Assembly (NCBI GenBank): GCA_035325645.1
Contig: DAOKZK010000008.1
Location: forward strand, 559-64,558
Direction of reading: 5' to 3'
Length of the DNA stretch: 64,000 bases
Origin: Candidatus Macondimonas sp.
Lineage (GTDB): Bacteria; Pseudomonadota; Gammaproteobacteria; UBA5335
The notes under the pieces are model-generated. The model was not told where the DNA came from, searched no databases, and saw only the letters and a program-made list of their open reading frames with translations. A program made the translations under genes and the position numbers. Of this stretch, positions 54,751 to 56,545 are shown one piece after another (within the stretch, counting starts at the first letter, position 1; the number at the start of each line of letters is the position of its first letter).

Positions 54751-55197
54751 CTAGGGGTGCTCGACCCGCAACCAGAAGGTGACCGGGCCGTCGTTGGTGA
54801 GGCTCACCTGCATGTCGGCGCCGAATACGCCACTTTGCACGCGGGGATGGAGTTGCTCGGCGCGCGCAATCAGTTCGGCATAGAGCAGTTGCGCCTCGTC
54901 GGGCGGCATGGCGGGCGAAAAGCCCGGCCGGTTGCCCTTGCGAGTGTCCGCGGCCAGGGTGAACTGCGGCACCAGCAGCAAGCCCCCTGCGACATCGCGC
55001 AGGCTGAGGTTCATGCGGCGCTCGGAATCCGGAAACATCCGGTAATCCAGCATGCGCTCCAGCAGACGATGGGCGGTCGCAGGGGTGTCGAAGCGCTCGA
55101 TGCCGATCAGTGCGACCATGCCGGTGCCGATGCGAGCGACGGGCGCGCCGTCGACCTCCACCCAGGCGCGTCGCACCCGTTGCAGCAGGCCTATCAT
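54751..55197 (-). CDS. dtd: D-aminoacyl-tRNA deacylase
   Basis: 148-aa ORF starting MIGLLQRV, with SQFTL-like VPQFTLAAD and the C-terminal NDGPVTF. Confidence 0.9.
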   Translation of the reverse strand: MIGLLQRVRRAWVEVDGAPVARIGTGMVALIGIERFDTPATAHRLLERMLDYRMFPDSERRMNLSLRDVAGGLLLVPQFTLAADTRKGNRPGFSPAMPPDEAQLLYAELIARAEQLHPRVQSGVFGADMQVSLTNDGPVTFWLRVEHP

Positions 55198-55245
55198 GAT
55201 TGCTTCCGATGGCTGAACGAGGCCATCAGGTCATCAATACTCGGT

Positions 55246-55263
55246 ATTAAGAAAATGCTTACA
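55246..55263 (+). promoter_or_regulatory. GacA/UvrY-box-like imperfect palindrome ATTAAG-N6-CTTACA
   Basis: It matches TGTAAG-N6-CTTACA at 6/6 positions in the right half and 4/6 in the left. It lies about 40-60 nt upstream of where the GGA-rich block begins. Confidence 0.3.
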
Positions 55264-55295
55264 CCGAATTTTGGCATTGTCTGACTGTTTATGTC

Positions 55296-55628
55296 ACAGA
55301 GGTGGCGGAAGATGGACCCATCCGGAGACGAGTGGTAAGGACGCCACGGGGCCAATGGATCGGCCCGATCAGGGATGAATGGTGGCAGGAAGCCGCCCAT
55401 CATGGAAGAGTCAAGGACGTACACCGGATCGGCAGTCAGGGAGATTGCCGTAGGCCAGGAGGCCGATGCGGATTGGTGGCCCCCTCCGGTCAGGGACGAG
55501 GGGATCGGATGGCAGGATGCCCGGCGGGCGGTCATCGATCGGTTGTTCAGTGCACACGAGAACTTTGCTTTAGCCATGTCTGGCTCACGCAACCCGGGTT
55601 GGTTCACGCCGACCCGGGTTTTTTGTTG
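55296..55628 (+). ncRNA. candidate CsrB/RsmY/Z-type CsrA(RsmA)-sequestering sRNA (5' end not determined)
   Basis: I counted 17 GGA trinucleotides in 55307-55517, several of them in loops of short GC stems. No credible CDS covers the block. A strong + strand intrinsic terminator lies at 55591-55628. Confidence 0.55.
55591..55628 (+). terminator. rho-independent terminator (AACCCGGGT-12 nt loop-ACCCGGGTT + T-run)
   Basis: A 9-bp stem at 55591-55599/55612-55620 is followed by TTTTGTTG. No + strand CDS ends here. Confidence 0.75.
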
Positions 55629-55737
55629 TGGCGAAAAGCGCTGCCGAACCAACTCGGGCGGGCACTCGGCCGCACCGTAAAGGTCCAATTTTTATCCACA
55701 TCATCGTCATTTTCGCCGCTCCGCGCAGGAGGCCGCC

Positions 55738-56379
<642 letters not shown>

Positions 56380-56545
56380 AAGCAAGAAGGGAGCTGAACC
56401 CCGACGGGGTGTCTTGCCAGGCATCGGTGCGCCGGCACCGAACCGGCCGGCTCGGCCCCGCTCGCCGCTTGCGGTATTCTTGCCCACCATCAAGGGCATG
56501 CAGCACACGGCATGCCGGGATCGGGTTCGAATCGCCGAGGCTGGG

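Follow-up and report, generated by a model that had tools for sequence, protein, structure and literature searches.

The gap between dtd and msrA was analyzed in a 64-kb stretch of Candidatus Macondimonas sp. DNA (contig DAOKZK010000008.1 of assembly GCA_035325645.1), hereafter the window, by which we mean the whole 64,000 nucleotides (nt). The gap carries a conserved, structured, non-coding unit on the plus strand, which is delimited by an upstream box and a Rho-independent terminator and shows selection on exposed GGA trinucleotides. The unit is intergenic, lying between dtd on the minus strand and msrA on the plus strand, and its terminator is separated by 110 nt from msrA, which is encoded on the same strand as the RNA. 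The non-coding RNA gene of this gap, an independent one on the plus strand with a product of about 300–365 nt, is real and well supported; if transcription starts where conservation dips, the RNA is ∼330 nt long, in agreement with the CsrB-sized RNA proposed in a first-pass annotation of the sequence. We consider this RNA a probable sponge for a CsrA/RsmA-family protein. The features of the locus are collected in Table 1.

Table 1. Features of the dtd-msrA locus, in positions of the 64-kb window.
Feature	Coordinates	Strand	Remarks
dtd	54751-55197	minus	5' neighbour of the RNA gene
First conserved bases of the module, CATCAATAC...	55232-55243	plus	sequence on the dtd side nearly all variable between lineages
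GacA/UvrY-like upstream box, GTATTAAGAAAATGCTTACA	55244-55263	unassigned (.)	unique in the window; invariant in four lineages
Invariant promoter-proximal block, TTGGCAyTGTCTGACTGTTTnnGTCAC	55271-55298	plus	occurs only with the RNA
Candidate small RNA transcript	55299-55628	plus	∼330 nt if the start is the conservation dip
GGA-rich body of the putative sponge	55307-55525	plus	17 GGA, 10 AGGA/ARGGA, 7 CA(N)GGANG
GGA-loop hairpin	55332-55347	plus	loop AAGGAC
GGA-loop hairpin	55349-55366	plus	loop AAUGGAUC; in four-lineage consensus fold
GGA-loop hairpin	55381-55397	plus	loop AGGAA; in four-lineage consensus fold
GGA-loop hairpin	55430-55450	plus	loop CAGGGAG
GGA-loop hairpin	55453-55464	plus	loop AGGA; in four-lineage consensus fold
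GGA-loop hairpin	55485-55509	plus	loop includes UCAGGGAC
GGA-loop hairpin	55511-55521	plus	loop AGGAU
Near-invariant GGA-free 3' segment	55544-55591	plus	two small hairpins predicted
Rho-independent terminator	55591-55628	plus	13-pair stem, 4-nt loop, T-run
msrA	55738-56379	plus	3' neighbour of the RNA gene

Seventeen GGA trinucleotides start between 55307 and 55515 on the plus strand, exactly the count given earlier for 55307-55517, and only two TCC occur in this 211-nt block. A 211-nt frame of the window holds 2.9 GGA on average and, outside the block, a maximum of 10 on either strand. For AGGA/ARGGA motifs, counted in 240-nt frames on both strands of the 64-kb window, the block holds 10, the next-best frame 7, and the average frame 0.9 (sd 1.2), and CA(N)GGANG was found seven times in the block compared with 0.33 per 333 nt and a maximum of three elsewhere in the window. 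When the block was shuffled, mononucleotide shuffles gave 7.9 GGA (17 or more in 0 of 5,000) and dinucleotide-preserving shuffles 11.3 ± 2.1 (17 or more in 23 of 5,000), so that the density exceeds both shuffled sequence and the remainder of the window, as had been anticipated. About half of the GGA excess comes from local composition and about half from the trinucleotide itself. The share explained by dinucleotide shuffles (11.3 of 17 GGA), together with the frequency of spurious features in high-GC genomes, could be taken to mean that there is no functional RNA here, only a compositional accident, a decaying coding sequence, or a repeat.

The comparative pattern, however, speaks against such an accident. 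Six contigs of the same species carry an identical element and differ by only two single-nucleotide polymorphisms, both downstream of the terminator. The same ∼400-nt module is found in three further lineages, with a dtd-msrA spacer of 510–550 nt and MsrA identities of 92% (L167-L171, including a 1.2-Mb contig of the metagenome-assembled genome GCA_045864775.1), 90% (L172), and 81% (L173); the genes past dtd differ in each RNA-bearing lineage, and the dtd-RNA-msrA core is kept. In the four-lineage alignment, 30 of 32 columns are variable in 55198-55227 and 8 of 30 in 55228-55257; only 3–16 columns per 30 vary from about 55232 to 55617, and 23–36 per 30 past the T-run. Because conservation collapses on both sides, the conserved unit runs from just upstream of the box to the end of the terminator. 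Across lineages the module is present or absent as a whole: four sister lineages (L007, L174, L182, and L183; MsrA ∼75%) are without the element at this locus, their dtd-msrA gaps being 175–206 nt or the neighbouring gene being a different one.

The conservation does not follow codons. Variable columns are spread 24/26/28 over the three codon phases (p = 0.86), indels measure 1 or 2 nt rather than multiples of three, and the GC content at third codon positions of the overlapping open reading frames (ORFs) is 0.59–0.71 against 0.79–0.90 for the 39 real genes of the window. A 92-aa ORF called across the RNA in one assembly had no relative but itself among 5.8 billion proteins. This non-coding composition and the lack of homologues bear out the first-pass view that the ORFs in the gap are artefacts, and the alignment of the spacer, which had been proposed as a check, shows conservation without 3-nt periodicity that stops at the terminator. 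No paralogues or diverged copies were detected with an nhmmer profile of the RNA among 179 sequences (∼1 Mb), exact-pattern scans of viral contigs for the box and the 3' segment gave 0 matches, and blastn against plasmids and phages gave none. A metagenome scan with Dtd, in which the best match was 68% identical, returned no locus with a comparable GGA block; of the 80 loci from a genome scan with MsrA, a protein too conserved and too widespread for the purpose, 79 came from unrelated phyla and L007 alone was useful. Sharp conservation edges, compensating stem changes (see below), preferential conservation of GGA, the lack of codon periodicity and of protein relatives, and the absence of further copies in the window or in 183 loci and of plasmid or phage matches effectively refute chance, a repeat, or a decayed gene, and we give this explanation next to no credence.

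A consensus fold was obtained with RNAalifold from four distinct sequences (the window and the three lineages), and an implausible pairing of the 5' end with sequence past the terminator was removed before pairs were counted. The fold is a series of short hairpins together with a single branched domain; two small hairpins toward the 3' end and the terminator complete it. The three GGA hairpins singled out in the first-pass annotation (55349-55366, 55381-55397, and 55453-55464) were all recovered. In the consensus structure, 13 of the 17 GGA are fully unpaired and seven lie in hairpin loops; in the thermodynamic ensemble of the window sequence, the unpaired probability is 0.60 for GGA compared with 0.37 for other triplets (p = 0.002) and only 0.23 for GG followed by a base other than A. 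Standard pairs fill 98% of cells, versus 23–45% in controls in which the partners were slid by 1–3 columns, and the real pairing likewise exceeds the slid controls in pairs changed on both sides (6 vs 0–2) and in additional pair types (28 vs 5–12). Numerous G-U pairs, in some or all lineages, would become A-C mismatches on the opposite strand, and these together with the direction of the terminator assign the RNA to the plus strand.

Within these structures GGA is the part that is kept. Only 6 of 51 GGA columns are variable compared with 60 of 167 in the rest of the zone (p = 0.0008), and two seeming losses are one-base shifts (CAGGGAG to CAGGAAG) that leave GGA in the same loop. Loops vary around a fixed GGA (AAGGAC/ACGGAU, AGGAA/AGGAC, CAGGGAG/CAGGAAG, and AGGAU/AGGAC/AGGAA) and stems co-vary, which is the signature expected for CsrA/RsmE sites (PMC7652899). 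The folding check suggested earlier thus came out in favour of the RNA, with GGA enriched in unpaired and loop positions and preferentially conserved. As a separate observation, GCAGGAAGCCGCC (55385-55397), which makes up the loop and 3' arm of the 55381-55397 hairpin, nearly repeats the ribosome-binding region of msrA, GCAGGAGGCCGCC (55725-55737, followed by ATG); since L172 and L173 do not preserve the msrA copy, this likeness is probably a mere Shine-Dalgarno resemblance.

The terminator is stronger than the 9-bp stem and T-run first described at 55591-55628: it forms 13 pairs (55591-55620) followed by TTTTTTGTTG, and its helix stays paired in 100% of cells across lineages, with both partners changed in two pairs and one partner in three. 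Leaders with terminators are common, and the element shares the strand of msrA, ends 110 nt before that gene, and is always beside it in the four lineages that carry the element. It is conceivable, then, that it is a cis-acting 5' leader of msrA, with a start upstream of the GGA block, attenuation at the terminator, and read-through controlling msrA (and cstA). Against this, conservation goes no further than the T-run and nearly every position in the 110-nt stretch leading to msrA is variable, the four sister-lineage msrA orthologues (∼75%) do without the element, the 13-pair terminator is very strong, and no riboswitch or leader family of Rfam is matched. Nor is there a conserved antiterminator: the sole downstream complement to the 5' arm (55593-55605), a 13-nt stretch of 92% complementarity at 55646-55658, 40 nt downstream, is not conserved in relatives, which makes a regulatory alternative pairing unlikely. 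Neither the obligate linkage nor the exclusive terminator/antiterminator pairings of a leader or attenuator class were found, and a role as msrA leader is, in our estimate, quite improbable.

At the other end of the unit, the box reads ATTAAG-N6-CTTACA (55246-55263), matches TGTAAG-N6-CTTACA at 16 of 18 positions, and has a perfectly palindromic core, TAAG-N6-CTTA. No other site in the 64 kb comes within two mismatches of this consensus, and 0.15 such sites would be expected. Both the box and the block TTGGCAyTGTCTGACTGTTT are invariant in all four RNA-bearing lineages and are absent from dtd-msrA gaps without the RNA; because they come and go with the RNA, they belong to its gene and not to dtd or msrA. 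The GacA/UvrY-like box recognized in the first-pass annotation has held up, being the only one in the window, invariant, and travelling with the RNA. The block at 55271-55298 presumably serves the RNA gene as core promoter or regulatory DNA, and a sigma-70-like promoter on the minus strand, directed toward dtd (GTGACA-18-CAAAAT, 55297 to 55268), overlaps it. The weak -10 element noted earlier at 55290-55295 (TATGTC) did not survive comparison, as relatives read TACGTC, TTGGTC, or TGCGTC, and inspection by eye downstream of the box revealed no sigma-54, sigma-E, or sigma-32 consensus. Three candidate starts can be named: near 55264, with a -10 GAAAAT inside the box; at ∼55299, where conservation dips; and near 55321, with a -10 GAAGAT/GATCAT at 55309-55314. 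The last would put the centre of the box near -67, similar to the published site of rsmY at -75, the GacA sites of rsmY and rsmZ lying at -75 and -196, respectively (PMC4950607).

According to Kulkarni et al. (2006; PMC1488887), RNAs of this kind are defined by five features: they are intergenic, are dense in AGGA/ARGGA, end in a rho-independent terminator, expose GGA in loops or free regions, and have upstream of them a conserved site of the csrB, csrC, or rsmY (UvrY/GacA) type. The first four are present here. The fifth is plausibly present as well, judging from a site that is invariant and linked to the RNA and that was compared by consensus mismatches only.

At gathering scores, no Rfam family was matched anywhere in the 64-kb window. 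Below them, the body shows affinity only to the Csr/Rsm clan (CL00106). PrrB_RsmZ (RF00166) scored 20.3 bits at 55348-55451 with three GGA hairpins aligned, against a gathering score of 44, and again 12.9 bits at 55475-55621; CsrB/RsmB (RF00018) scored 25 bits over the full model length in L173, against a gathering score of 71. In the window copy no CsrB match was listed at E ≤ 10, where clan competition keeps only the best family. RsmY, RsmX, CsrC, and the other clan members gave nothing at gathering and nothing listed at E ≤ 10, with the reservation that overlapping matches of these members may be masked by PrrB_RsmZ or CsrB. Permissive matches to NsiR1 and asX2 were disregarded as terminator look-alikes. 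The Rfam comparison suggested at first (CsrB, CsrC, RsmX, RsmY, and PrrB_RsmZ) thus shows an affinity of the body to the clan and does not support membership in any of its families: the RNA is of a known kind and forms a new family of its own, outside CsrB, RsmZ, and RsmY.

Its closest analogue in build is CsrB/RsmB of E. coli, Erwinia/Pectobacterium, and Vibrio fischeri, with which the RNA shares the size class, short hairpins whose loops carry many CAGGA(N)G-type motifs, an intrinsic terminator, and, plausibly, an 18-bp palindromic upstream site of UvrY/GacA type, from which the site here deviates at 2 of 18 positions. In V. fischeri, CsrB1 and CsrB2 measure 416–420 nt and carry 21 motifs (PMC1488887). 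Both CsrB and the present RNA also have a GGA-free segment right before the terminator; in E. coli CsrB, this is where RNase E enters (PMC7652899). The segment is unstructured in CsrB, whereas here it is invariant and predicted to be structured. There is no sequence homology to CsrB/RsmB, and the host clade is at ∼70% (AlaS) from any named genus. RsmZ/PrrB and RsmY (RF00166 and RF00195; Pseudomonas, Azotobacter, and Legionella) similarly present GGA in penta- to octaloops on GC stems and in linkers and have a GacA box of the form TGTAAG-N6-CTTACA, but the RNA here is about three times longer, and its box lies at an uncertain ∼40–70 nt from the RNA as opposed to the published -75 and -196 (PMC4950607). 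The dual-function small RNAs McaS and GadY of E. coli combine CsrA-binding GGA sites with a separate functional segment (PMC7652899); they have few GGA sites and act mainly by base-pairing, whereas here the GGA body dominates and no target of the 3' segment was found among 39 start regions of the window.

No part of the RNA is better conserved than this 3' segment, in which only 3 of 31 columns vary (55558-55587). Two hairpins are predicted in it, at 55545-55563 and 55566-55591, the latter with an inner stem AGCCA/UGGCU (55572-55585), and their pairs are all invariant and give no covariation signal either way. As a base-pairing seed, the segment formed duplexes with the 39 translation-initiation regions of the window that were energetically no better than those of shuffled seeds. 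RNase E initiates the decay of E. coli CsrB immediately 5' of the terminator, at a site shielded by bound CsrA (PMC7652899); in light of this turnover site, a conserved 3' segment is compatible with a sponge. The most economical guess from this analogy is that the segment would be a turnover element; possibly it is a site for a second partner. We also noticed that TTTGGCATTGTCTGACT (55270-55286), in the promoter-proximal block, and TTTAGCCATGTCTGGCT (55569-55585), in the 3' hairpin, are direct repeats of 76% identity with TGTCTG in common, which may be due to chance.

The window, a metagenome contig (k141_45810 of ENA ERZ27240674), carries recA and alaS, and these allow the position of csrA to be examined. 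By AlaS, relatives down to 83% identity form an uncultured clade of their own, followed by a gap to ∼70%, where the protein is equidistant from Burkholderiales/Rhodocyclales (Pandoraea, Pigmentiphaga, Limnobacter, and Sulfuricystis) and Halothiobacillaceae (Thiofaba). The nearest outgroup (L180/L181; AlaS 71%) has the order recA-recX-alaS-lysC-csrA (compare L180, 8708-10259) and encodes a canonical CsrA. In the window, alaS (21624-24290, minus strand) is instead followed within ∼110 nt by a convergent pyrroloquinoline quinone (PQQ)-dehydrogenase/cytochrome c gene (junction 21516-21624), with a shared bidirectional terminator at ∼21541-21572, and the same alaS/PQQ-dehydrogenase junction is found in L179 (AlaS 83%; 12623-12735). 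Neither csrA nor a tRNA gene is present at this junction in the window or in L179, and lysC-csrA is missing from the ancestral position.

These observations lend some weight to a structured small RNA whose main partner is not CsrA, either a sponge for another RNA-binding protein in a clade from which csrA has been lost or a dual-function RNA whose 3' segment pairs with mRNAs or recruits a factor. In its favour are the alaS-adjacent csrA position, empty in the clade and filled in the outgroup, the GGA-free 55544-55591 as the most conserved part, which a pure CsrA sponge does not need, and the Rfam Csr/Rsm models that stay below threshold. On the other hand, the motif goes beyond bare GGA: CA(N)GGA(N)G in hairpin loops is the recognition element of CsrA/RsmE, and the turnover site before the terminator of E. 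coli CsrB makes a conserved 3' segment compatible with a sponge (PMC7652899). The duplexes of the 3' segment, no better than shuffled at the 39 start regions, likewise give the base-pairing version no support. We hold a non-CsrA partner to be unlikely. Rather more doubtful still is a variant in which the canonical alaS-linked csrA would have been lost and the RNA would titrate some other GGA-loop-binding protein or act as a two-module regulator, the partner of the 3' domain (an mRNA seed, or a turnover or localization factor) being coupled to occupancy of the sponge. We know of no other protein that selects the CA(N)GGA(N)G-in-loop pattern.

Several points weigh against a CsrA sponge and have to be set beside the evidence for it. 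Taken alone, the box is statistically weak, as a 16/18 match that occurs at least once in 14 of 100 shuffles; the four lineages have no sigma-70 -10/-35 pair in common between the box and the RNA body, and the position of the box relative to the start may depart from the -75 of rsmY and the -196 of rsmZ. Only four distinct sequences were available, which makes the covariation statistics thin, and the Rfam scores are far below gathering (20 vs 44; 25 vs 71). The pure sponge model does not account for the invariant 47-nt GGA-free 3' segment, and the cstA leader lacks a conserved GGA pair at its Shine-Dalgarno sequence. With tblastn, neither five CsrA variants, GacA, and UvrY nor, subsequently, the outgroup CsrA and LysC had a match in the window or the fetched clade loci. 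Since the alaS-linked position is empty in the clade and occupied in the outgroup, gene order indicates that csrA has been moved or lost in the clade.

Nevertheless, we consider that the RNA is a CsrB/RsmB/RsmZ-type sponge for a CsrA/RsmA-family protein, at a probability of roughly 0.7. The original proposal of an unannotated Csr/Rsm-type sponge is supported by conservation, by the exposure and density of GGA, and by the box, with Rfam contributing sub-threshold matches only. We infer CsrA as the bound protein, a GacA/UvrY-like activator, and the exact 5' end. A response regulator of GacA/UvrY type at the TAAG-N6-CTTACA box probably switches transcription on, and transcription would end at the strong intrinsic terminator. 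The RNA would then display ∼15–18 GGA, placed either in single-stranded linkers or as loop sequence on short GC-rich stems and in many cases of the form CA(N)GGA(N)G; these motifs would serve as high-affinity sites for CsrA/RsmA-family dimers, so that accumulation of the RNA would titrate the protein off mRNA leaders.

Some further observations were made around the locus. Downstream of msrA, the sequence GGTATyCTTsCCC is kept upstream of cstA in all five lineages compared, followed in the RNA-bearing ones by a GCATGC...GCATGC hairpin, and 56380-56545 is probably the cstA promoter and leader. The msrA-cstA gap is ∼180 nt longer in the RNA-less lineages (L007, 3631-3990; L174, 2754-3048; L182, 1098-1456; L183, 1206-1555), where it holds 10–15 GGA on the minus strand versus 3–4 on the plus strand. 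It has no intrinsic terminator and few conserved GGA loops, and it overlaps the cstA leader; this block may represent a pyrimidine-rich leader of cstA or else another GGA-rich RNA, in antisense orientation. The region past dtd is rearranged in every lineage, and in L173 a tRNA gene (2874-2946) lies between rpoD and dtd; the 64-kb window has no tRNA genes. Near the contig end, at 58875-63878 (minus strand), a gene for an 867-aa ResIII-type helicase adjoins one for a 556-aa N6/N4 DNA methylase, and the pair may be a restriction-modification or defence module.

Csr/Rsm decoy RNAs are master switches of post-transcriptional lifestyle control, and their fast evolution hides them from homology searches outside model genera. 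To our knowledge, studies of Csr or Gac components have not extended to this lineage; RNAs of this sort are what a specialist would expect to find in such lineages. Here, architecture and comparative genomics together delineate a new family with clear boundaries, and they yield an alignment fit for a covariance model as well as a candidate response-regulator box; the host lineage, uncultured and deep-branching, falls between the classical beta- and gammaproteobacteria. The significance of the family could grow through two features, the vacant csrA position and the invariant 3' domain. The reading as a sponge predicts that the clade retains a relocated csrA and a GacA-type activator; if csrA is in truth absent, the RNA would point to a new GGA-loop-binding partner.

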